Positions 2,216 through 63,904 of a stretch of DNA of 64,000 bases are shown here, one piece after another. The stretch is from Patescibacteria group bacterium (lineage in GTDB: Bacteria > Patescibacteriota > Microgenomatia > Levybacterales > UBA12049): the NCBI GenBank assembly GCA_038064195.1, contig JBBTTO010000003.1:178428-242427 (forward strand). Reading direction: 5' to 3'. The notes below the pieces were generated by a model, which was not told where the DNA came from, made no database searches, and was given only the letters and a program-made list of their open reading frames with translations. Made by a program: the position numbers and the translations under genes. How positions within the stretch are numbered: position 1 is the stretch's first letter; each line of letters begins with the position of its first letter.

Positions 2216-3202
2216 CTAGCCGCGGATGATGAGGGAGAGGAGGTGGCGGGCGTAATTTTTCTTTGCATCAGTAATACGTACAACGACCATCCCGAGGTTT
2301 ATCTGTCCATAGATCACCAGTGCACCAAGGGGGGCAAGCATGATGGAGGGAAGTGCCAGTAAGTCCTCCTCACCATCAACGAACATGACCTGGGGGATGA
2401 TATTTTCGATGGCTTTTACTAAAAGCGGACCGAAGTCTTTGTTAATCGTGCCCGCGGGATTACTGATAGTGTAATCGGCTTGCGGAAAGTAAATATCGAG
2501 TTCTTTGGTATCCATAGGTTCCCGATGCGTCATTTTATCCAGAATTGAAAGAGTAACCGGGATGCCTGTCTTGCGGAGTGCAAGTGAGACGATATCGCCA
2601 ATAGTAATAATGGTAGTGTCATCGGTGATTTGTGCCTTGATCGTCTCAATATCGCGGGTGACTTCACCCACAGGCTGCTTGAGCATTTCACGGAGATTCT
2701 CAGGCAGAATATACTCAGGGCTGTCCACGAAAAATTTGAGATAGGAAGTCCCTTCCTGGTCTATGATTCCCTGGCGTATTCTCTCAGAGCTGACGGGCTC
2801 ACCGTCATCTGCTTTAACGAAAGGGACGACCACGATCTGCATTTCCGGAAGCTGACGATTTTTACGTTCGGTATTGATTTTCTTCGCGGTCTCTTCGGTG
2901 GCGGGACTGACGATGATCACATCGATACTCGGGTCAGTGAGTGTGGTGCCGTATTGATCTGTGATAGGAATGAGTGTAGTGCGGTCAAGAAGTTGATGAA
3001 TAGCCAGATAATTCTTCAGGGTCTGCTCACGGGTAGCGTAGTCCTCTATGACCTCAGCATAGTCTTTGTCCTGATACAATTCACTCTCGGCAATACCGAT
3101 CGTCACTCGTTCGGCACGCATGAAAGCATGGGCGAGAAGCATATGATGGCCCGGGTGGAGACGATCAAACGTCCCACCGATGATAGCATGTTGGGCAGGC
3201 AT
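2216..3202 (-). CDS. Fusion of archaeal/eukaryotic-type phosphopantetheine adenylyltransferase (N-terminal) with a DUF359-like domain (GTP-dependent dephospho-CoA kinase family; C-terminal)
   Basis: N-terminus GGTFDRLHPGHHMLL is the cytidylyltransferase H-x-G-H signature. The C-terminal half has ITIGDIV, VDGEEDLLALP and VIYGQ-N-GMVVV, which are reminiscent of DUF359. Confidence 0.55.
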   Translation of the reverse strand: MPAQHAIIGGTFDRLHPGHHMLLAHAFMRAERVTIGIAESELYQDKDYAEVIEDYATREQTLKNYLAIHQLLDRTTLIPITDQYGTTLTDPSIDVIIVSPATEETAKKINTERKNRQLPEMQIVVVPFVKADDGEPVSSERIRQGIIDQEGTSYLKFFVDSPEYILPENLREMLKQPVGEVTRDIETIKAQITDDTTIITIGDIVSLALRKTGIPVTLSILDKMTHREPMDTKELDIYFPQADYTISNPAGTINKDFGPLLVKAIENIIPQVMFVDGEEDLLALPSIMLAPLGALVIYGQINLGMVVVRITDAKKNYARHLLSLIIRG

Positions 3203-3322
3203 AAAGATATTGTAAAGAATTCAGAACCAATCGTCTACTCTGTTTGTTTGACTAACAGTGCCGACAAGCCTATAATACAGGCTTATTGTTCTTTAAAATA
3301 TTTTGGAAAGAGTAACTTCACA

Positions 3323-3357
3323 GTAAGTAGTACGTAGTTGGTAGTAAGTAGCAAGCC
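3323..3357. repeat. Degenerate tandem heptamer array (agtaagt agtacgt agttggt agtaagt agcaagc)
   Basis: Five contiguous 7-nt units read directly. It belongs to the same kind of array seen before other genes in this window. Confidence 0.6.
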
Positions 3358-3544
3358 ACATATGCGTGGATTTCATGCTTAGTATCTCGGTATTATTTGT
3401 TCTGAAGTCGCCTCTTTCCAATTCACATCATTTTTGGTAGGCGGCTTAGTGTTTGTATTTTTTATAAACAGTGAGCCGTCTATCACGTCTTGTGGTGACG
3501 TCGTCCCACCGGGAAACCGGTATATTTAAGCAGGAGGCCATGAT

Positions 3545-4249
3545 ATGGGAGAACCAACCGAACAAAAGGAAGAAGAAAAAGAGACCATTGCGCTGGGGAT
3601 TACGGCTCTTGGTCGTCTTGAGTACGCTGGAGACGCACTCCTCGCACGGGAGTTTTTTGAGAATGGTAGGATGCCCTTCGGGCTCCCATCAGTCGGCGAA
3701 GAGGCATCCGCCGTGTTGGCAACAACTGCCAACCTGGTAGCGCGATTGTTGTCTGAAGAGGCGTTGGTGGCAGAAGAGCTTGAGTCTCTTGGGCCGCCGC
3801 GTACTTTTCGCGGGACACCCCGGCTGACTCGGGGAGTCTACCTAGTCGCTCACCCGATCTTTATCAACATCCAAGAGCCTATTCTTAAAGATCTCGTCAA
3901 GGTACTACGGGATCTTCTGAGAAGGTTTCGGGTGATGGGGCCGCTACGAGTCGAGGTAGACGCGCTCGATCAGCTCACAGGAGTAGTCTACGCGGCTCAG
4001 GACGCCTGGGATGAGAAACGATTAACTCGTACTCTCAGGAGTAACTCTCCTCAAAGTCTGCTATCTCGATTGGAGGAACAGCCTGATCGGCCTCCGTCCA
4101 ACCGGCGAAGTGGTCTGGAACTGCGAGCCATTACCAGGATACTCCTGGACTACGAAAGGGTAGCCCCGGTTATTTTCGACACAATGTTTGGTGACGACGA
4201 AGAGATCAGTCCTGAGGGACCGGTGCTTGCCGAAGACGATTCGGAATGA
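3545..4249 (+). CDS. Hypothetical protein (acidic C-terminus)
   Basis: 234-aa ORF in a high-GC patch. No domain recognised. Confidence 0.4.
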   Translation: MGEPTEQKEEEKETIALGITALGRLEYAGDALLAREFFENGRMPFGLPSVGEEASAVLATTANLVARLLSEEALVAEELESLGPPRTFRGTPRLTRGVYLVAHPIFINIQEPILKDLVKVLRDLLRRFRVMGPLRVEVDALDQLTGVVYAAQDAWDEKRLTRTLRSNSPQSLLSRLEEQPDRPPSNRRSGLELRAITRILLDYERVAPVIFDTMFGDDEEISPEGPVLAEDDSE

Positions 4250-7679: not shown

Positions 7680-7982
7680 CTATTTTCGTTTTTTACCCTT
7701 GCCCCGCTTTGGTCGAGTCGAAGTGGGCCATCTCCAGGAGGCTTTTTCGCCTCTGTGGTAGGAGATGAGGACGAGGATGGAGGTAAGGACTGCGGTGAGG
7801 AAGAAAAATATGACAGTTGAGACAGTTTGATTAAAGAGCGGATCTCGTAGTCTCTCTGAATAAATAAAAGCCAGTTTGATTTCCAGTATTAAATAGATAG
7901 CAAGCGTCAACCAGCCTTGCCAGGTGGCCGGATACCAACCGAAACTTATTTTTTTTGCTTTGGACCACTTTTTTTGTGCCAT
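7680..7982 (-). CDS. Small membrane protein with a basic C-terminal tail
   Basis: Two hydrophobic helices. Ends RPKRGKGKKRK. Confidence 0.4.
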   Translation of the reverse strand: MAQKKWSKAKKISFGWYPATWQGWLTLAIYLILEIKLAFIYSERLRDPLFNQTVSTVIFFFLTAVLTSILVLISYHRGEKASWRWPTSTRPKRGKGKKRK

Positions 7983-7994
7983 AACGTTAGTATA

Positions 7995-8025
7995 GCAGTT
8001 AGCAGTTAGCAGTTAGCAGTTAGCA
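7995..8025. repeat. Tandem heptamer (gcagtta) x4.4 immediately upstream of the CDF transporter promoter
   Basis: Read directly: agcagtt agcagtt agcagtt agcagtt agca. Confidence 0.9.
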
Positions 8026-8030
8026 TAGGG

Positions 8031-8036
8031 TATAAT
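8031..8036 (+). promoter_or_regulatory. -10 TATAAT box 6 nt upstream of a GTG start (leaderless-type promoter)
   Basis: tagggTATAATagtaacGTG. No room for an SD sequence. Confidence 0.5.
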
Positions 8037-8042
8037 AGTAAC

Positions 8043-9005
8043 GTGCACCACGACAAAGATTCGCGGCTGACTTCCAAACGCGTCATCCTCACATCATTCT
8101 CCATAGACATTCTCGATCTTGTGTCAAGTATCGTCGTGGCTTGGCTTTCAGGCAGTATTGTTATGTTCACCCAAGCCCTGGAGGGGTTTACTGACCTCGT
8201 CTCAAGTGGTTTACTCGTCTTTGGGTTGAAGAGATCACTGCGTAAAGCGGATAAAGATCATCCTTTCGGCTACGGACGGGAGATTTATTTCTGGACGCTT
8301 ATTTCAGCCCTTGTTATGCTCGGGAGCACGGCTGTATTGTCTCTTTACTTTGGCTATCAGCGCTTTATCCACCCGTATCATCTGTCAGATGTACCATATG
8401 CTCTCATAGTCTTAGTTGTAACTATTTTTACTAACGGTTACGGTTTTACTTTAAGCTATCGGCGTTTACTCAAGGGGAGATCGTTGCGTAATATAGCTAG
8501 GGTTTTTTATCGTTCGTCTCTTATTGAAATCAAGACAACTTTTATCCTGGATTTGATGGGGACTTGTGCCTCAGTTTTGGGTATTATCGCGATCGGTCTC
8601 TACGCGTTAACAGGAGATTCCCGGTATGACGGATTGGGAGCTATGACTATCGGTCTGGTACTGATCTTTTTTGGCTTTTTCCTGATTGCCGGGATACGGG
8701 ATCTCTTGGTCGGACGCAGTGCTGCTCCCCATGTTGAGCAAAAGATCAGAGAAGCTGCTCTTAATGTCCCTGAGGTTGAGGATGTGCTCGGGATTAAGAC
8801 TGTCCATGTAGGGTCTGAAAAATTACTGGTGGCACTTGATGTGCATATGCATAGTGATTTAAAGACGCGCGAACTTGAGATGTTGATGGATGAGATAAAG
8901 GCAGAAGTCCGTAAAGTTGTACCGAGTGTCAAATATATTCAGGTGGAGTTGGAGACGAGGGATAGAAAAGAGATTAGAGGTAAGGCTAAGTGGCACAGTG
9001 GGTAG
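8043..9005 (+). CDS. Cation diffusion facilitator (CDF) family metal efflux transporter
   Basis: 6 TM helices plus a C-terminal cytoplasmic domain. Resembles CzcD/ZitB-like transporters. Confidence 0.8.
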   Translation: MHHDKDSRLTSKRVILTSFSIDILDLVSSIVVAWLSGSIVMFTQALEGFTDLVSSGLLVFGLKRSLRKADKDHPFGYGREIYFWTLISALVMLGSTAVLSLYFGYQRFIHPYHLSDVPYALIVLVVTIFTNGYGFTLSYRRLLKGRSLRNIARVFYRSSLIEIKTTFILDLMGTCASVLGIIAIGLYALTGDSRYDGLGAMTIGLVLIFFGFFLIAGIRDLLVGRSAAPHVEQKIREAALNVPEVEDVLGIKTVHVGSEKLLVALDVHMHSDLKTRELEMLMDEIKAEVRKVVPSVKYIQVELETRDRKEIRGKAKWHSG

Positions 9006-10352: not shown

Positions 10353-10886
10353 ATGTTACCCAAGCAAATGCTGATGCTCGTTGATGAGCAGGATAATTTT
10401 TTAGGGGAGTATAAAGATATCACGACCTGCCATACCGGAAAGGGCGTGCATCATCGCGCTTTTATCGTCTTTCTTACTAATAAAAAAGGTGAAGCACTAC
10501 TGCAAAAGAGAAAACATGTCAGGTGGGATAATGTCTGGGATATTTCAGTGACGAGTCATACCCTCCATTTACCCGATCACGATGAGAGTTATCTTGAAGC
10601 AGCAACCAGAGCCTTAAAAGTTGAGATGGGTATTCCTGAGATACCGCTTAAGCGGACAGGAGAATTTAATTATTATGCTAAGCATGGTGAACAATGCGAA
10701 AATGAATTTGTGGCTATCTTTCAAGGCAACTATGACGGTCCGCTTACTCCCAATTCTGAGGTCGTTTATGAGTATCGATGGGTGAATCCGGAGCAGTTCT
10801 TTAGGGATATGCGTCACTCTCCTGATGACTATACTCCCTGGGCCAAACACGCGATGGCCACTCTTGAACGGAGGGAGCGGAGATGA
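10353..10886 (+). CDS. idi: Isopentenyl-diphosphate delta-isomerase, type 1 (Nudix fold)
   Basis: HRAFIVFLTNKKGEALLQKRKH...WDISVTSH plus a Nudix-like E-rich motif. First gene of the isoprenoid operon. Confidence 0.75.
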   Translation: MLPKQMLMLVDEQDNFLGEYKDITTCHTGKGVHHRAFIVFLTNKKGEALLQKRKHVRWDNVWDISVTSHTLHLPDHDESYLEAATRALKVEMGIPEIPLKRTGEFNYYAKHGEQCENEFVAIFQGNYDGPLTPNSEVVYEYRWVNPEQFFRDMRHSPDDYTPWAKHAMATLERRERR

Positions 10887-12647: not shown

Positions 12648-12693
12648 ATAATTATTATGAGATTTCGCATAGGTATTTTGTTATACTGAGCTC

Positions 12694-15606: not shown

Positions 15607-15640
15607 GAAGTTAGAAGTCAGTAGTTAGCAGTTAGTTGTT
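15607..15640. repeat. Degenerate heptamer array (gaagtta gaagtca gtagtta gcagtta gttgtt) abutting the apbE ATG
   Basis: Read directly. Same g-agtta family as the array at 7995. Confidence 0.7.
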
Positions 15641-16420
15641 ATGAAAGTTACAAAGTTTATCATGGGGATGCCGATCATCGTTGAAGTAGTTGACCGGAGT
15701 GTTTTGAAAAAAGATTTAGAGGAAGTTTTTGCCTGGTTTCGTCGTGTTGACCGGCAGTTTAGTCCTTATAAAAAAACGAGCGAGGTCTCACGTTTGAATC
15801 GTAAAGAAATTACTTTTGCTCAAGCTTCAGCTGAGATGCGGGAGGTTTTGGTTTTGGCAGAGAAGGCCAAGCAGGAGACTCAGGGCTATTTTGATGTTAC
15901 AGCCCGCGGCTTTTTCGATCCTTCAGGGATTGTTAAGTCCTGGGCAATTGAGAAAGCCTCTCAATTATTACAAGAGAAAGGCTTAGCTCGCTTTTATATC
16001 AATGCCGGAGGAGATATCCAGGTCAGCGGGAGAAATGCACAGGACGCAGACTGGCTTGTCGGTATCCGTCATCCTTTTATACAGGATAAGATCGTCAAAA
16101 CAGTCAGAATACCTGGGGCGATTGCGACCTCGGGGACATATCTGCGCGGCGATCATATCTATGATCCACACCGGAAGGGGATCCTGAAACCAGCTTCCGC
16201 AAGGGACTACCTCTTGAGAGGGGCGCAGGATGACAACCTAGTCAGTCTGAGTGTTATTGCCGGGGATATTGTAACAGCAGACGTTCTGGCGACAGCCTCA
16301 TTTGCGATGGGGAGGAGCGGGATTATGTTTTTAGAAAAAACAGCAGATGTGGAGGGGTATATGATTGATAGGCAGGGAACGGCGACATACACAACTGGGT
16401 TTGAAAAATACGTTGTGTAA
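15641..16420 (+). CDS. apbE: FAD:protein FMN transferase (ApbE/Ftp family)
   Basis: The N-terminal FIMGMPIIVEV (MGT-type), the ARGFFDPSGIVKSWAIEKA region and the C-terminal TSGTY, GDHIYDP are ApbE hallmarks. No signal peptide or lipobox is present. Confidence 0.75.
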   Translation: MKVTKFIMGMPIIVEVVDRSVLKKDLEEVFAWFRRVDRQFSPYKKTSEVSRLNRKEITFAQASAEMREVLVLAEKAKQETQGYFDVTARGFFDPSGIVKSWAIEKASQLLQEKGLARFYINAGGDIQVSGRNAQDADWLVGIRHPFIQDKIVKTVRIPGAIATSGTYLRGDHIYDPHRKGILKPASARDYLLRGAQDDNLVSLSVIAGDIVTADVLATASFAMGRSGIMFLEKTADVEGYMIDRQGTATYTTGFEKYVV

Positions 16421-16480
16421 GTCTAGAAGACAGAATTAAGTATATTGTATACAGAATAAAAAGATAAAGAATAATCTTAC

Positions 16481-16508
16481 TTAATACTTAATACTTAATA
16501 CTTAATAC
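16481..16508. repeat. Tandem heptamer (ttaatac) x4 abutting the ATG of the membrane oxidoreductase gene
   Basis: Read directly: ttaatac ttaatac ttaatac ttaatac aaac ATG. Confidence 0.9.
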
Positions 16509-16512
16509 AAAC

Positions 16513-18033
16513 ATGCTTAATTTTATTGATTCATATCTCGATCGGATTACGATGTACAGGCTTGTCTTGTATTATCTGATCGTCTTGCTCGGAGCGGCTT
16601 TCCTATTGAGTCTCTTAGGCATTCTCAACTATAATCCACTCGGGATTTTATTTAACAGTATTTTTCTGGTCGTTATCTGTTATATCACCAATAGAGTTTT
16701 TGCCTCAGTTTTTAAGGCTCCGACCAACGTCGAGTCTGTCTATATTACATCTCTCATTCTCGCCTGTATCATCACGCCTTTTAAGAGTCTGCAGGATTTG
16801 CCGATGCTCGGCTTTGCGGCTGTGTTGGCAGTCTCATCCAAATATATCTTGGCCATCAAGAAAAAACATATTTTCAATCCCGTGGCGATTGCTGTCGTCC
16901 TGACGGCTTTCGGCTTTGGGGTCTCAGCGAGCTGGTGGATCGGGAACGCCTGGATGACGCCTTTTATCGTACTTGGCGGACTACTCGTCATGCGTAAAAC
17001 GAGACGCGAGCATATGGTCTTCATGTTTTGGGCAGTTGCGTTGGCTGTGATTTCCATTTTTACCCTTATTGATGGTAACTCATATGTCTTGATGCTTGAT
17101 CAGGTCTTCCTCCATTCGTCATTTTTCTTTTTTGCTTTTCTCATGTTCACCGAGCCGCTCACGACTCCGCCGACACGAAGTCTGCAGCTGATGTATGCGG
17201 TCCTCATCGGTCTCCTTTTCCCGCCTCAAGTTCATCTGGGAAGCTGGTATACCACGCCTGAGCTGGCACTTGTCATCGGCAATGTTTTTGCCTATCTGAT
17301 CAGCCCTCGGCAAAAGTTCGTCATGCTTCTCTCAGAAAAATTGCAAATCGCCCCTGATATCATGGATTTTGTTTTCAAGCCTCCTGAACGCCTCCGCTAT
17401 TCAGCAGGTCAGTACTTCGAATGGACTTTTCAACACCCCCAGACCGACAGCCGGGGGAACAGGCGCTATTTTACACTTGCATCAAGTCCGACAGAAGATA
17501 CACTTCGGATCGGGGTCAAATTTTATGAAGGCGGCAGCAGTTACAAAAAATCACTGCAAAAAATGGATGAGAAAGTACCGATTGTTGCTGCACAGCTGGC
17601 AGGAGAGTTCATTTTGCCTAATGATAAGACAAAAAAACTGGTTTTTGTGGCAGGAGGTATCGGAGTGACCCCTTTTAGGAGTATGCTCAAATATCTTATC
17701 GATACGAAAGAAAAGCGGGATATTATCGTCCTTTTCTCCAATAAATATGAGTCGGATATTGTCTATAAAGATATTTTGGATCAGGCAGAACGTGAACTCG
17801 GGATCAGAACTGTTTACACACTGACCGATACTGATAAAATTTCACCGACTTGGACAGGGGAGAAAGGAAGAATTTCCTCTGAGATCATCCAGAAAAATAT
17901 TCCTGACTGGAGAGAACGATTTTTTTATCTTTCGGGTCCGCATGCGATGGTCGTGGGTTTTGAGACGACGCTCAGGCAAATGGGACTGCCGGCATCACTT
18001 ATTAAAAAGGATTTCTTTCCGGGATTTGTATAA
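16513..18033 (+). CDS. Polytopic membrane domain (about 270 aa) fused to a C-terminal ferredoxin-NADP reductase-like FAD/NAD(P)-binding oxidoreductase domain
   Basis: About 6-7 hydrophobic helices at the N-terminus. The C-terminus has RYFTLASSP (RxYS FAD motif) and GGIGVTPF (NAD(P) motif). No Cys cluster, so no Fe-S centre. Confidence 0.65.
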   Translation: MLNFIDSYLDRITMYRLVLYYLIVLLGAAFLLSLLGILNYNPLGILFNSIFLVVICYITNRVFASVFKAPTNVESVYITSLILACIITPFKSLQDLPMLGFAAVLAVSSKYILAIKKKHIFNPVAIAVVLTAFGFGVSASWWIGNAWMTPFIVLGGLLVMRKTRREHMVFMFWAVALAVISIFTLIDGNSYVLMLDQVFLHSSFFFFAFLMFTEPLTTPPTRSLQLMYAVLIGLLFPPQVHLGSWYTTPELALVIGNVFAYLISPRQKFVMLLSEKLQIAPDIMDFVFKPPERLRYSAGQYFEWTFQHPQTDSRGNRRYFTLASSPTEDTLRIGVKFYEGGSSYKKSLQKMDEKVPIVAAQLAGEFILPNDKTKKLVFVAGGIGVTPFRSMLKYLIDTKEKRDIIVLFSNKYESDIVYKDILDQAERELGIRTVYTLTDTDKISPTWTGEKGRISSEIIQKNIPDWRERFFYLSGPHAMVVGFETTLRQMGLPASLIKKDFFPGFV

Positions 18034-32441: not shown

Positions 32442-32479
32442 TTTTTGCTTCTTTTTCTCCTCAAGCGTATAATTCCGGT

Positions 32480-37466: not shown

Positions 37467-37513
37467 CAGAGAACAGAGAACAGAGAACAGAGAACAGAGA
37501 ACAGAGAACAGAG
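37467..37513. repeat. Tandem heptamer (cagagaa) x6.7 upstream of the nuclease gene (read ttctctg on its strand)
   Basis: Read directly. Confidence 0.95.
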
Positions 37514-37526
37514 TTCGTGTTAGTCT

Positions 37527-37580
37527 TGTTTACTGTTTACTGTTTACTGTTTACTGTTTACTGTTTACTGTTTACTGTCA
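37527..37580. repeat. Tandem heptamer (tgtttac) x7.7 immediately upstream of the helicase ATG
   Basis: Read directly. Confidence 0.95.
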
Positions 37581-37587
37581 TTAACTT

Positions 37588-38904
37588 ATGACCCAAGCTG
37601 AAGCACTCGATATTCTCAAATTAGGCCACAATGCTTTTCTCACCGGGCCGGCAGGCTCAGGTAAGACCTACCTCCTCAATCAATTTATCAAATATCTCCG
37701 CCTTAACAATGTCAGTGTCGGAATTACTGCCTCGACAGGCATCGCTGCCACTCATATGGGTGGCACGACTATCCATAGTTGGTCGGGGATGGGGATCCGG
37801 GACGAGATGGATGAGCGGGCGATAGCAGATCTCCTCAAGAGACAGTATCTCAGAAAGCATTTTTTAAAGACCAAAGTCCTCATAATTGACGAGATCTCGA
37901 TGCTGCATGCTTTTCAACTCGATTTGGTGCACAGTATCTGTCGGGCTTTTAAAAAAATCGAGTACCCCTTCGGCGGAATGCAGGTCGTGATGTGCGGAGA
38001 TTTTTTTCAACTCCCGCCTGTCTCCAAAGCAGATGGTGAGTCCAGATTTGTCACCGACTCGACGATCTGGAACGAGATGAAGCTGCGCATTTGCTATCTT
38101 GATGAGCAGTACCGTCAGAGTGATCGGGCATTCCTGCGAGTTCTCAATGATATCAGGAGTGGGGATGTCAATGAAGACACAGTCGAAGTCTTATCCGAGC
38201 GGCTCAACAAAGAGCCGGAGGGATATACCCGTCCGACCCGTCTTTTTACGCACAACGCGGATGTAGACGTGGTGAACAAGACCCATTTAGATGCACTTGT
38301 GGGAGAAGCACATGAATATCGCATGATAGGGCGTGGCAATCCTAACCTGGTTGAAGTTCTGCGTAAGACCTGTCTGGCGCCTGAGAAGCTCATTCTCAAA
38401 AAAGGTGCACAGGTAATGTTTGTTAAAAATAATTATGAAGTGGGGTACGTCAACGGCACACTAGGTGAGGTCATCGGCTTTGATAAGGTCGATGCGCCTA
38501 TCGTCCGGACTTTTGACGGGGCCGAAATCGCTGTCAGTCAGATGAGTTGGGAAGTGAAAGAGGAAAACACTGAGTTGGCAGCCATCAGCCAGGTACCGCT
38601 TAGACTTGCCTGGGCGATTACTGTCCATAAGTCTCAAGGTATGTCACTGGATGCTGCGGAGGTTGACCTTTCACGTTCGTTTGTCCCGGGGCAGGGGTAT
38701 GTAGCGTTATCTCGACTCAGAGGCCTCAAGGGTCTAAAGCTTATGGGGATGAATCAGATGGCTTTGACGGTGAATTCTGATGTGGCGGAAATGGATAGGG
38801 AGTTTCGCCGTCTCTCAGATGAAGCAGTGCTGGATTTGCAAAAATTAGATTTACAGACCAAAGAGCAAAAGCAAAAAGACTACCTGCATTACTTGCAAAG
38901 ATGA
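37588..38904 (+). CDS. SF1B ATP-dependent DNA helicase, PIF1/RecD-like
   Basis: Walker A GPAGSGKTYLL, IIDEISM, GDFFQLPPV, QYRQSD and TVHKSQGMSLD. Confidence 0.7.
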   Translation: MTQAEALDILKLGHNAFLTGPAGSGKTYLLNQFIKYLRLNNVSVGITASTGIAATHMGGTTIHSWSGMGIRDEMDERAIADLLKRQYLRKHFLKTKVLIIDEISMLHAFQLDLVHSICRAFKKIEYPFGGMQVVMCGDFFQLPPVSKADGESRFVTDSTIWNEMKLRICYLDEQYRQSDRAFLRVLNDIRSGDVNEDTVEVLSERLNKEPEGYTRPTRLFTHNADVDVVNKTHLDALVGEAHEYRMIGRGNPNLVEVLRKTCLAPEKLILKKGAQVMFVKNNYEVGYVNGTLGEVIGFDKVDAPIVRTFDGAEIAVSQMSWEVKEENTELAAISQVPLRLAWAITVHKSQGMSLDAAEVDLSRSFVPGQGYVALSRLRGLKGLKLMGMNQMALTVNSDVAEMDREFRRLSDEAVLDLQKLDLQTKEQKQKDYLHYLQR

Positions 38905-39980: not shown

Positions 39981-40934
39981 ATGAAATATCAAATTTTGTT
40001 GTATTACAAATATGTGGCCGTATCTGATGCTGAGGCAGTTCGTAAGGAGCAGCGGGAGTTGTGTGAAAGATTAAACCTCAAAGGGCGAATTATCGTAGCC
40101 ACTGAGGGAATTAATGGTACGCTTGAAGGTTTGGTATCCGACACGGAGGCCTATATTCACGCGATGGAGGAGTCTGGATACTTCAAAGGTATTAATTACA
40201 AAAAAAGCCAGGGAACGGGGCAGGCTTTCCCTAAGCTGTCCGTGAAAATAAGACCTGAGGTCGTCACCACAGGGGTTTCTGGTTTGGATCCTACTCAAAC
40301 AACCGGTAAGTACCTGTCCGCTGATGAGTTGCATGTGTGGTATGAAGAAGGCAAAGAATTTTATGTCGTTGATATGCGTAATGACTATGAGTACGCTTCA
40401 GGCCACTTTGAGGGATTTGTCCCCTCGGGTCTTGCCAATTTCCATGATCTCAAACAGGTACTTCCCAAGATCCAACATCTAAAATCTAAAACCATTGTCA
40501 CCGTCTGTACCGGTGGGATTAGATGCGAAAAAGCCTCAGGTTTCTTACTCCAAAACGGCTTCAGTGATGTCTATCAATTAAAAGACGGTATCCAGACCTA
40601 TATGGAGGCATACCCCAATGAGCACTTTAAAGGCAAGTTATATGTTTTCGATAATAGATTAACCCTAGGGTTTAACGTTAACGATTCCAAACATGAGATA
40701 GTGGGGAAGTGTGATCACTGCAGTAAGTCCTGTGACAGCTACGTCAACTGTGCCTATAACGAATGCCACAGGCACTATATAAGCTGCTCAGAGTGTTTGG
40801 ACAAAGAGACAGGCTATGCTTTTTGCAATCAGGAATGTAAAGAGAATTATTTCAAAATCACCATTCACCACCGCGCTCAGCGCGGTTTGCACCCAGCTGA
40901 GCTGGGCCACAAGCGCGTCATTCCGGCGTTATGA
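39981..40934 (+). CDS. trhO: tRNA uridine(34) hydroxylase TrhO (rhodanese-domain, UPF0176/YceA family)
   Basis: MKYQILLYYKYV...GRIIVATEGINGTLEG, rhodanese CTGGIRCEKA, C-terminal Cys cluster. The longer ORF-track start at 39870 lacks homology. Confidence 0.75.
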   Translation: MKYQILLYYKYVAVSDAEAVRKEQRELCERLNLKGRIIVATEGINGTLEGLVSDTEAYIHAMEESGYFKGINYKKSQGTGQAFPKLSVKIRPEVVTTGVSGLDPTQTTGKYLSADELHVWYEEGKEFYVVDMRNDYEYASGHFEGFVPSGLANFHDLKQVLPKIQHLKSKTIVTVCTGGIRCEKASGFLLQNGFSDVYQLKDGIQTYMEAYPNEHFKGKLYVFDNRLTLGFNVNDSKHEIVGKCDHCSKSCDSYVNCAYNECHRHYISCSECLDKETGYAFCNQECKENYFKITIHHRAQRGLHPAELGHKRVIPAL

Positions 40935-43936: not shown

Positions 43937-44065
43937 ATGGCAGAAGTTAAATATACCTGTACACCCTGCGGAACTGACTTCAATGATCTGGAGTCACTTA
44001 ACCAGCATCAGTCTACACAGCACGCGACCAAAACTGAAGTTACTGTTGAAGGTGAAAGAAAGTAA
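43937..44065 (+). CDS. 42-aa peptide with a canonical C2H2 zinc-finger spacing (C-x2-C-x12-H-x4-H)
   Basis: MAEVKYTCTPCGTDFNDLESLNQHQSTQHATKTEVTVEGERK. TGgTACAAT extended -10 lies about 12 nt upstream. Not in the ORF track because it is under 60 aa. Confidence 0.4.
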   Translation: MAEVKYTCTPCGTDFNDLESLNQHQSTQHATKTEVTVEGERK

Positions 44066-44278
44066 CTGACTACTGACAACTAATATCTAATTACATACTA
44101 TATCTCTTGACGCGCTCATCTATATGTGAGTAGAGTAATAGTAATGCCCGTTCACTTGGGCTTTGGTATAGCCCGCAGACAGATTAATGTTTCCGGCAGG
44201 GATTTCACTGTAACTCCTCATCGAGGAGGGGGACTCCTTTTTCTTCAAAATTTTTTCCGACGAAACATACATATTACA

Positions 44279-44349
44279 AAACGAAACCCGCTTTCGTTAA
44301 CCCCGATTGAATTGGGGTTAAAACTACGGCGGGCAAAGGAGGTGAGAAT
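44279..44349 (+). promoter_or_regulatory. Conserved 5' leader RNA motif, copy B, in front of the DUF378 gene
   Basis: aacgaaacccgct-[hairpin ccccgattgaattgggg]-acggcgggcaaaggagg. Same core as 18208-18259. Confidence 0.5.
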
Positions 44350-44544
44350 ATGAAATCATTATTTATGGTAGCTACATGGCTTCTTGTTGTTGGCGGGTTG
44401 CTTTGGGGATATATGGGCGTAACTAATACCGATCTCCTTACTAACACTGTTGGCACGGGAGTTGCTGATATAGTTGAAGTCTTAGTCGGACTTTCAGCTG
44501 TTTGGGTCGGATACGTCATGCTTACCGGTAAGAAAATGAAGTAA
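44350..44544 (+). CDS. DUF378-family small membrane protein
   Basis: LLVVGGLLWGYMGVTNTDLL matches the DUF378 LNWGLVG-type motif. 2 TM helices. Confidence 0.55.
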   Translation: MKSLFMVATWLLVVGGLLWGYMGVTNTDLLTNTVGTGVADIVEVLVGLSAVWVGYVMLTGKKMK

Positions 44545-44604
44545 GTCGTGAGCCTGAACTTATAGTTTCCTCCTGAATTCCGCTTCGCGGGATGAAGGCG
44601 GATG

Positions 44605-45352: not shown

Positions 45353-45539
45353 GTTTAAATCCTAAATTCGAAGCACGAAATTCTAAACAAATTCGAATTA
45401 CCAAATCCCAAAACTTTCAGACCTTTGGATTAAAATTTTGATATTATTTAGGATTTAGATATTGGGATTTAGGATTTTGTTTAAGACTATATCTCTTGCG
45501 GTGATAATTCAGGTCTTGATAGAATAATAATTCGTTCTT

Positions 45540-61850: not shown

Positions 61851-61859
61851 TGCTATAAT
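61851..61859 (+). promoter_or_regulatory. Extended -10 TGcTATAAT 6 nt upstream of the ychF ATG (leaderless)
   Basis: Read directly. Confidence 0.5.
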
Positions 61860-61865
61860 CTCAGG

Positions 61866-63518: not shown

Positions 63519-63797
63519 ATGAGATTATATGATTTAGTTTTGGTTCTTAAGACATCACTTACTGAGGCGCAACGCACTAAAGTTGTCGATCAGGTAAAGA
63601 GTTGGCTTGGTGATGTCAAAGTCGTGAATGTTGATGACTGGGGTCAAAAGCCTCTCGCATATCCGATCAAAAAGGAAGCGGCAGGAGTCTATGTCAAGTT
63701 CAATTTAGAGACTGAGAAGACAATTCCTAATGATTTTGAAACAAGAGTTTTTAGAGCTGACGGTGTCCTACGACACCTATTGCTTAGAACTAAGTAA
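63519..63797 (+). CDS. rpsF: 30S ribosomal protein S6
   Basis: MRLYDLVLVL...DDWGQKPLAYPIKK. The ATG is internal to the longer TTG-initiated ORF in the track. Confidence 0.8.
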   Translation: MRLYDLVLVLKTSLTEAQRTKVVDQVKSWLGDVKVVNVDDWGQKPLAYPIKKEAAGVYVKFNLETEKTIPNDFETRVFRADGVLRHLLLRTK

Positions 63798-63904
63798 ACT
63801 CGAAGCACGAATTTCGAAGCTCGAAACAAATATAAAATAATAAATACAAAATAGTTTCGGATTTCGATATTCGGATTTGGAATTTCTTTCCGAAGGAAAG
63901 TGAT

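Follow-up and report, generated by a model that had tools for sequence, protein, structure and literature searches.

The window analysed here is a stretch of 64,000 nucleotides (nt) from a 1,075,823-bp contig of Hainich groundwater (ENA ERZ1292617), which belongs to the ~1.08-Mb genome of a Patescibacteria group bacterium. A divergent intergenic region of 60 bp (7983 to 8042) separates the gene of a hypothetical 100-amino-acid (aa) protein on the minus strand (7680 to 7982, start ATG at 7982) from a CDF cation-efflux gene on the plus strand (8043 to 9005, start GTG at 8043). The region has two back-to-back -10-like boxes, each 6 nt before its start codon in a leaderless-type layout: TATACT on the minus strand (7989 to 7994), followed by aacgtt and ATG, and TATAAT on the plus strand (8031 to 8036), lying inside the conserved sequence TAGGGTATAATAG. 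The plus-strand side reads TAGGGTATAAT, then agtaac and GTG. The 36 bp between the boxes are taken by a perfect tandem array of the heptamer GCAGTTA (TAGCAGT in another phase; 4.7 copies, 7993 to 8025), which reads (TAACTGC)4 on the minus strand and is found both by Tandem Repeats Finder and by our own detector. An earlier reading of the letters, hereafter the original prediction, had described this layout correctly. The array ends at 8025 and is followed by 5 nt (taggg), the TATAAT box, 6 nt and GTG 8043. This array is one of a set of heptanucleotide long simple sequence repeats (SSRs), tandem with at least three copies, over-represented, intergenic and dispersed, and unstable by whole units.

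The original prediction listed six such sites, and period-7 tandem repeats of 4.4 to 7.4 copies are present at all of them according to Tandem Repeats Finder, run on the whole window, and to direct reading of the letters; four of the six are 100% perfect. Two occupy both junctions of the gene string FMN_bind-ApbE-RnfD/FNR. At the intercistronic junction from FMN_bind to ApbE, degenerate GNAGTTA variants (4.7 copies, 76%; 15609 to 15641 by Tandem Repeats Finder, 15607 to 15640 as read) succeed one another in the order GAAGTTA GAAGTCA GTAGTTA GCAGTTA GTTGTT and reach the ApbE ATG at 15641 with 0 nt between. At the second junction, a perfect TACTTAA array (TTAATAC in another phase; 4.4 copies, 100%, 16478 to 16508) ends 4 nt before the ATG at 16513 of a gene coding for a RnfD/NQR2-FNR fusion. 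Neither junction has a Shine-Dalgarno site and both arrays are identical in strain L055. The ApbE start is fixed by conservation of the N-terminus MK.TK.IMGMPI in the relative L056, and the start at 16513 is likewise fixed by N-terminal conservation with L056. Two further arrays lie together where a thermonuclease gene and a PIF1-family helicase gene diverge. CAGAGAA (6.7 copies, 100%, 37467 to 37513) reads (TTCTCTG)n toward the minus-strand thermonuclease gene (start 37440) and is followed on that strand by 7 nt and a TATACT hexamer, while TGTTTAC (= TTTACTG; 7.4 copies, 100%, 37527 to 37578) ends 9 nt before the helicase ATG at 37588. An in-frame TAA upstream of this ATG, together with gene calls that shift with array copy number, rules out that the arrays are translated sequence.

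The excess is specific to the 7-nt period. A second scan, made with our own detector at a cut-off of at least three copies and with 20 dinucleotide shuffles as null, gives 6 arrays for period 7 versus 0.0 in the shuffles; periods 5, 6 and 8 give 2, 1 and 0 arrays, none with 4 copies, and within 5 to 15 nt no period but 7 attains 4 copies in the window. A looser lag-7 detector finds 8 segments in the 64-kb window versus 9 in a control of 711 kb of unrelated bacterial loci, roughly ten times the array density of unrelated genomes; at lags 6, 8, 9 and 10 it detects no segment in the window. Exact heptamer duplications of just two copies are no commoner than chance predicts (3 observed vs 3.6 expected), unlike arrays of 4 to 7 copies; the excess, confined to arrays of at least 4 copies, must therefore come from array expansion and not from array birth. 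All seven real arrays of the window are intergenic (P~8e-7), intergenic DNA making up 13.4% of the window in a simple gene map, and five end 0 to 26 nt from a start codon. Measured to the nearest start codon, the arrays have a median distance of 10 nt, versus 68 nt for random intergenic placement (P=0.0025), a statistic with n=7 in which the arrays themselves form a large part of their short intergenic regions. The pattern named in the original prediction as contrary to it, arrays equally common inside genes and far from starts, is not the one observed, with 0 arrays in genes and 0 at a large distance from gene boundaries. The sole lag-7 segment within a gene (40463 to 40494) has 2.1 exact copies, is kept as coding in L058 and is put down to chance.

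Not every array touches a start codon. An AGTAAGT-like array (4.9 copies, 77%, 3322 to 3355) of the GTAGTAA/GTAGTTG type, TTACTAC when read from the minus strand, is degenerate and stands within the divergent intergenic region 3203 to 3544. Contrary to the claim that it abuts a start, it is separated by 119 nt from the minus-strand one (3202) and by about 190 nt from the plus-strand one (3545). Two hairpin-like stretches flank it, aagcctATAATACaggctt at about 3267 to 3285 and gaagtcgcctc...ggtaggcggctt at about 3405 to 3448. The adjacent minus-strand gene (2216 to 3202) encodes an archaeal-type phosphopantetheine adenylyltransferase fused to a DUF359 / GTP-dependent dephospho-CoA kinase, a final part of the CoA pathway that is archaeal in style, in a bacterial genome. 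On the plus strand, a degenerate TAACTGA-type array (TAACTGA CTACTGA CAACTAA TATCTAA; 44064 to 44092) begins at the stop codon of a small zinc-finger-like open reading frame (ORF; 43938 to 44066) and contains the single literal TAACTGA unit found. It is followed by about 250 nt of non-coding DNA (44093 to 44350) extending to a DUF378 gene (44351 to 44545); this segment starts TCTTGACG...TAGAGTAAT, is kept in L058 (17186 to 17415), has no Rfam match and may be a leader or a small RNA. L068, a sequence of the same contig that extends 9 kb past the right end of the window, adds two arrays. In the ssb-rpsR gap about 600 nt past the window (L068 12586 to 12652), four TAACNAC-type units run directly into four inverted GNAGTTA-type ones, and the two sets together form an imperfect hairpin with about 28 nt per arm. 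GGAG and the start of ribosomal protein S18 come next; this hairpin may be a terminator or attenuator made of heptamer arrays. Farther on, (TATACTG)3 adjoins the start of a Na/H exchanger gene (L068 19537 to 19572). An Rfam gathering scan and a tRNA scan of the window give no matches, and the arrays are therefore not part of any described RNA family. RNA folding predicts mostly unstructured array transcripts.

The arrays differ in length between genomes that are otherwise nearly identical. L067, from a second Hainich library (ERZ1292620), aligns to the window over 13,528 bp with 3 mismatches and one gap, which corresponds to one extra CAGAGAA unit. L060 (JGI) and L061 (ENA), which represent one relative with 80% PIF1 identity, show 0 single-nucleotide polymorphisms (SNPs) over 21,317 bp, and their sole difference is (TTGGTCG)6 vs (TTGGTCG)4. 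Array copy number is hypermutable, changing faster than point mutation and in whole-unit steps. Four arrays other than CAGAGAA do not vary in copy number among the sister assemblies examined; the focal array, for instance, is identical in L001, L071 and L072, and TGTTTAC has the same copy number in L066 and L067. Logan assemblies use k=31. The focal array contains the starts of three Logan contigs (L002, L003, L073), and we infer that these starts fall exactly on the k-mer at which a k=31 graph would branch if there were an allele of at least 5 copies. Such breaks, and the known tendency of short-read assemblers to mis-size repeats, are what speaks for an assembly or sequencing artefact. This explanation of the arrays is nonetheless extremely improbable, the same arrays and flanks being found in independent assemblies (ENA ERZ1292617, ERZ1300416, ERZ1292620 and ERZ1286166, JGI, Logan) and the arrays being, at 31 to 52 nt, shorter than a sequencing read. 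In L060/L061 (positions 1 to 100), automatic gene calls shift with array copy number and give a 121-aa or a 93-aa product; here and in L058 (10001 to 11410) gene calls absorb arrays or palindromic elements into N-termini and loops. Start-codon annotation is therefore unreliable beside repeats in these genomes, where in practice the arrays break k-mer assemblies and move gene-start calls.

Comparison with relatives shows that arrays recur in orthologous places with changing content. L056 and L058 represent a relative with 77-85% protein identity (about 77% for ApbE of L056), with arrays in intergenic regions that have them in the window too: upstream of CDF, on both sides of ApbE and after the zinc-finger ORF. 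Upstream of CDF, unit family and orientation are those of the window; on either side of ApbE the units differ. Following the zinc-finger ORF, the family in L058 is unchanged and the array is two units longer than at 44064. Two more arrays of this relative have no counterpart in the window: one in a convergent region of L056, adjoining a stop codon (4009 to 4038), and one of CAGAGAA units in L058 (17771 to 17805), at a locus other than the 37467 site. Arrays are gained or lost between relatives. L060 has two arrays in 21 kb. The relative represented by L062-L065, with 77% PIF1 helicase identity, has 0 arrays in 21 kb, and 0 are found in 48 kb of the more distant L004-L007, which were retrieved through the CDF protein and served as negative control. 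In L060 and L062-65 the FMN_bind-ApbE-RnfD/FNR junctions measure just 0 to 27 nt; the neighbouring genes therefore do not need arrays.

The units fall into a few families. TAACTNC (GNAGTTA on the other strand) is found at 7995, 15607, 3322 and 44064 and in L056, L060 and L068; TTTACTG at 37527 and, reversed, in L056; CAGAGAA at 37467 and in L058; TTGGTCG in L060 and TACTTAA at 16478. In cyanobacteria, units of the type that Mazel is said to have described in 1990 as short tandemly repeated repetitive (STRR) heptanucleotides comprise CCCCAGT, TTGGTCA (STRR2) and CAACAGT (STRR3). TTGGTCG of L060 is one base away from STRR2, and AAACAGT, equivalent to TGTTTAC, one base away from STRR3. Of the eight units, three differ by at most one base from TAACTGA, STRR2 or STRR3 (P~0.017, a post hoc value). 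A primase-site (CTG) or replication-strand cause was considered and rejected: the window is part of a single replichore, with GC skew positive along its whole length, yet the strand carrying CTG differs from one array to another.

Similarity between degenerate arrays raises the possibility of mobile or copy-paste spread, through miniature elements or recombination between arrays, instead of birth in place. The same order of variant units is found at separate loci: over 33 nt the window array at 15609 is 88% identical to the one at L056 2947, and both match L060 118 to 154. Inverted TAACTNC/GNAGTTA pairs are found in L056 (2947/3036) and L068 (12586 to 12652). Moreover, two period-7 stretches of the window are arms of a dispersed palindromic element with copies also in L058. 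The likeness of short degenerate arrays built from one unit family is in part expected by construction, the flanks of the perfect arrays are unrelated and show neither terminal inverted repeats nor target-site duplications, and the variation observed is gain and loss of whole units in place. Taken together, these features make spread by copying an unlikely origin of the arrays.

The palindromic element resembles a miniature inverted-repeat transposable element and measures about 95 to 135 bp, with the left arm AAAyTCGAAGCACGAAATTCGAAGCACGAAAC, the right arm GTTTCGGATTTCGATATTCGGATTTAGGATTTTGT and an AT-rich centre. A full copy lies upstream of ssb (63796 to 63886), its 32-nt imperfect inverted arms each having a 7-nt sub-periodicity. 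The GATTTAG-type stretch at 45446 to 45477, which looks like a period-7 array, is one arm of a second copy (45400 to 45480) and was rejected as an in-situ microsatellite. L058 has two copies (2375 to 2505 and 10436 to 10563), and in L058/L059 one copy is in frame inside the PIF1 helicase coding sequence (469 vs 438 aa), which recalls the Rickettsia palindromic elements.

The sequences preceding start codons indicate how the arrays may be tolerated. Among the upstream regions of 80 genes, 17 have a GGAG-type Shine-Dalgarno site, 22 a -10-like hexamer 4 to 9 nt before the start, and 41 neither. An offset of exactly 6 nt between hexamer and start is found in 13 of the 80 genes versus about one gene for each other offset, and at this position the hexamer is often GGTATAAT or gcTATACT (e.g. 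8031 to 8042, 12680 to 12693, 32466 to 32479, 61852 to 61865). This suggests that leaderless mRNAs are widespread in this Patescibacteria genome. No GGAG, GAGG or AGGA precedes the starts at 7982, 8043, 15641, 16513, 37440 and 37588; the exception among array-bearing starts is S18 in L068, where GGAG follows the array. At the focal intergenic region, L056 keeps TATACT, 6 nt and ATG on the side of the hypothetical gene, and a 14-nt block around TATAAT (L056 3067 to 3080) is 100% conserved and followed by 6 nt and ATG. The box-to-box distance is about 135 bp in L056 vs 36 bp in the window, and between its boxes L056 has a degenerate GNAGTTA array and a second, inverted CTAACTN array. The boxes are therefore constrained, the spacing and array content are not. 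A sigma-70 consensus scan around 7995 reveals no -35/-10 pair at the focal array, and the idea that the array supplies a -35 element was dropped, no unit giving a good -35 at 16 to 18 bp from either box. Being upstream of both -10 boxes, the focal array is probably outside either mRNA.

We favour the hypothesis that the arrays are slippage-driven, hypermutable heptanucleotide microsatellites filling DNA left unconstrained by leaderless or Shine-Dalgarno-independent initiation. We hold this account with moderate confidence as a whole and with higher confidence for its SSR and slippage part. The arrays would gain and lose 7-nt units most likely by slipped-strand mispairing at replication, with an excess building up only past about 3 to 4 copies. 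They would survive in non-coding DNA only, because a 7-nt unit would frameshift a gene. In this compact genome, transcription of many genes seems to depend on a -10 box 6 nt ahead of the start codon and to be leaderless, and many other genes lack a Shine-Dalgarno site; the DNA just upstream of the box or start would therefore need little specific sequence beyond being unstructured, and arrays could lodge there. At 7995 the array would form the entire upstream region common to two back-to-back leaderless promoters. With a change in copy number, divergent promoters would be spaced and rotated differently, or an intercistronic leader would become longer or shorter. This could yield heritable and reversible differences in expression, such effects being by-products.

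Several points weigh against this hypothesis. The proximity of arrays to starts beyond random intergenic placement, their recurrence in orthologous intergenic regions and the reuse of few unit families (TAACTNC, TTTACTG, CAGAGAA) exceed what a purely permissive model predicts and could reflect selection or a factor recognising the sequence. Some degenerate arrays look, from their unit order, like dispersed copies of one sequence and not like local expansions. The sample is small, 7 to 10 arrays over about 82 kb of genome. L060 and L061 may come from the same or related read sets, in which case their difference could be within-sample heterogeneity or assembler behaviour instead of a difference between two strains. 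Finally, the promoter and leaderless assignments are inferred from sequence pattern and conservation only.

The first of these points is shared with the main rival explanation, which regards the arrays as functional cis-regulatory sites that a protein or the ribosome would read. In one form, sites in the leader or junction would recruit or block Shine-Dalgarno-independent initiation via S1, cold-shock or CsrA-like proteins; in another, a DNA-binding regulator would bind upstream of promoters having only a -10 box. Both forms agree with arrays that adjoin starts without Shine-Dalgarno site (15641, 16513, 37588), closer to them than chance within intergenic DNA, and with array RNA that is unstructured. 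They agree also with the persistence of arrays in orthologous intergenic regions and with the recurrence of few unit families across loci and species, three units being at most one mismatch from TAACTGA, STRR2 or STRR3. Parallel proposals exist for the TAACTGA repeats (PMC4679880), and deletion of heptamer repeats in Nostoc, where they lie near promoters and start codons, altered reporter output (bioRxiv 10.1101/2022.06.06.494920). Orientation relative to the downstream gene argues in the other direction, as it is mixed: the TAACTNC family has about 4 forward and 2 reverse cases, at few sites, and TTTACTG is forward in the window and reverse in L056, whereas in Beggiatoaceae 147 of 170 sets point to a start codon. 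Units also differ at orthologous sites, the same operon does without arrays in L060 and L062-65, the 7995 array stands upstream of both -10 boxes and is probably absent from either mRNA, and the downstream genes share no function. We consider the cis-regulatory explanation possible, if rather unlikely; that the arrays have some regulatory role is plausible.

Copy-number polymorphism between near-identical genomes, at arrays beside or between putative promoters, also brings to mind strict contingency loci, in which promoter SSRs are selected for on/off switching (phase variation) as at the Haemophilus influenzae hmw genes. One neighbour is a secreted-type thermonuclease and others are transporters, as such loci might have. 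Most neighbours nevertheless serve housekeeping or redox functions (ApbE, RnfD/FNR, PIF1 helicase, ribosomal protein S18), and the complete set, with CDF, thermonuclease, hypothetical proteins and the Na/H exchanger, shows no association with surface, virulence or host-interaction functions. A unit added upstream of a -10 box leaves the geometry from the box to the start and the local sequence unchanged and moves only distal DNA. Many arrays are decayed and imperfect, a state in which switching would stop, and four arrays keep identical copy numbers across the sister assemblies. Contingency loci in this strict sense are therefore quite improbable.

A broader proposal is that the arrays constitute a tunable regulatory layer, the TAACTNC, TTTACTG and TTGGTCG units, within one base of cyanobacterial or Beggiatoaceae units, being read by a conserved factor or by the Shine-Dalgarno-independent or leaderless initiation machinery. 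We regard it as doubtful. If true, rapid copy-number change would provide an ultra-small, host-dependent bacterium of the candidate phyla radiation (CPR) with heritable expression variation and no need of dedicated regulators. The original prediction saw in the arrays a lineage-specific, promoter-proximal repeat system. Its description as intergenic and start-proximal holds, promoter proximity holds at 7995, and the arrays are restricted to this species and to relatives with 77-85% identity; the word system is too strong for repeats of mixed units and orientations, missing from one fairly close relative and with a putative effect on expression.

Returning to the slippage hypothesis, a general rule is suggested, namely that heptamer repeats accumulate where initiation signals leave upstream DNA unconstrained, because the arrays fill the DNA between leaderless -10 boxes or replace the Shine-Dalgarno region. 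Heptamers adjoining starts have been described for decades in cyanobacteria, Beggiatoaceae, Bacteroidetes and Xanthomonas. Their high density in a Patescibacteria genome of roughly 1 Mb, with little junk space and few regulators, widens their phylogenetic range. The Hainich groundwater time series offers copy-number variants on an almost SNP-free background, which makes an expression effect testable in a natural population.

The statement that no annotated feature class explains the arrays has to be abandoned, since intergenic heptanucleotide tandem repeats are an established class (PMC4679880, PMC4692102). As relayed in these two papers, Mrazek (2007) found heptanucleotides to be the commonest long SSR category in SSR-rich prokaryotes and polymerase slippage was proposed for the 7-nt preference. 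The nearest likeness is to the TAACTGA repeats of marine Beggiatoaceae, some cyanobacteria and Bacteroidetes (MacGregor 2015, PMC4679880), tandem 7-nt units of 2 to 7 copies, almost all intergenic and mostly a few nt upstream of start codons without Shine-Dalgarno sequence. Both sets include "split" sets with variant heptamers and occasional inverted pairs, and in both the downstream genes have no common function, with ribosomal protein genes among them (here S18, in L068). The dominant family here, TAACTGC/TAACTNC, is one base off TAACTGA and is thus not a TAACTGA unit in the strict sense. In Beggiatoaceae related heptamers are rarely repeated and orientation is strongly forward, whereas here the unrelated TACTTAA, CAGAGAA, TGTTTAC and TTGGTCG coexist and orientation toward the start codon is mixed at the few sites available. 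Further differences from the TAACTGA repeats are the roughly 1.08-Mb Patescibacteria host, copy-number polymorphism seen directly, and the position of the focal array upstream of the -10 boxes of putative leaderless genes and not within a leader.

Other heptanucleotide SSRs are similar in part. The GGGAATC / GGGGA(T/C)T repeats of Xanthomonas and Nostoc (Rehm 2015, PMC4692102) are likewise intergenic and enriched in certain lineages, but are G-rich and capable of forming G-quadruplexes, whereas the units described here are A/T-rich, without G-runs and mostly unstructured. The 7-bp repeats of Haemophilus influenzae hmw1A/hmw2A (PMC12721329) lie in promoter DNA or between promoter and gene, as the present arrays may do, and likewise differ in copy number between otherwise near-identical genomes; unlike them, the present arrays are genome-wide, often decayed and not next to genes of adhesins or surface antigens, in an organism that is not a host-adapted pathogen with known phase variation.

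With the cyanobacterial STRR sequences and the long SSRs of 5 to 11 nt, the arrays have in common the period of 7, several units per genome, many dispersed intergenic arrays, over-representation of heptamers relative to other unit lengths, and variation of length and sequence among close relatives. They are not STRR1-3 in the strict sense, the host being non-cyanobacterial and the units not identical; they are also shorter (4 to 7 copies) and occur in a minimal genome, a type normally poor in repeats. For Patescibacteria/CPR, literature searches turned up no earlier account of heptamer or tandem repeats. The arrays are not a novel class of repeat: they extend the known heptanucleotide SSRs into the Patescibacteria.

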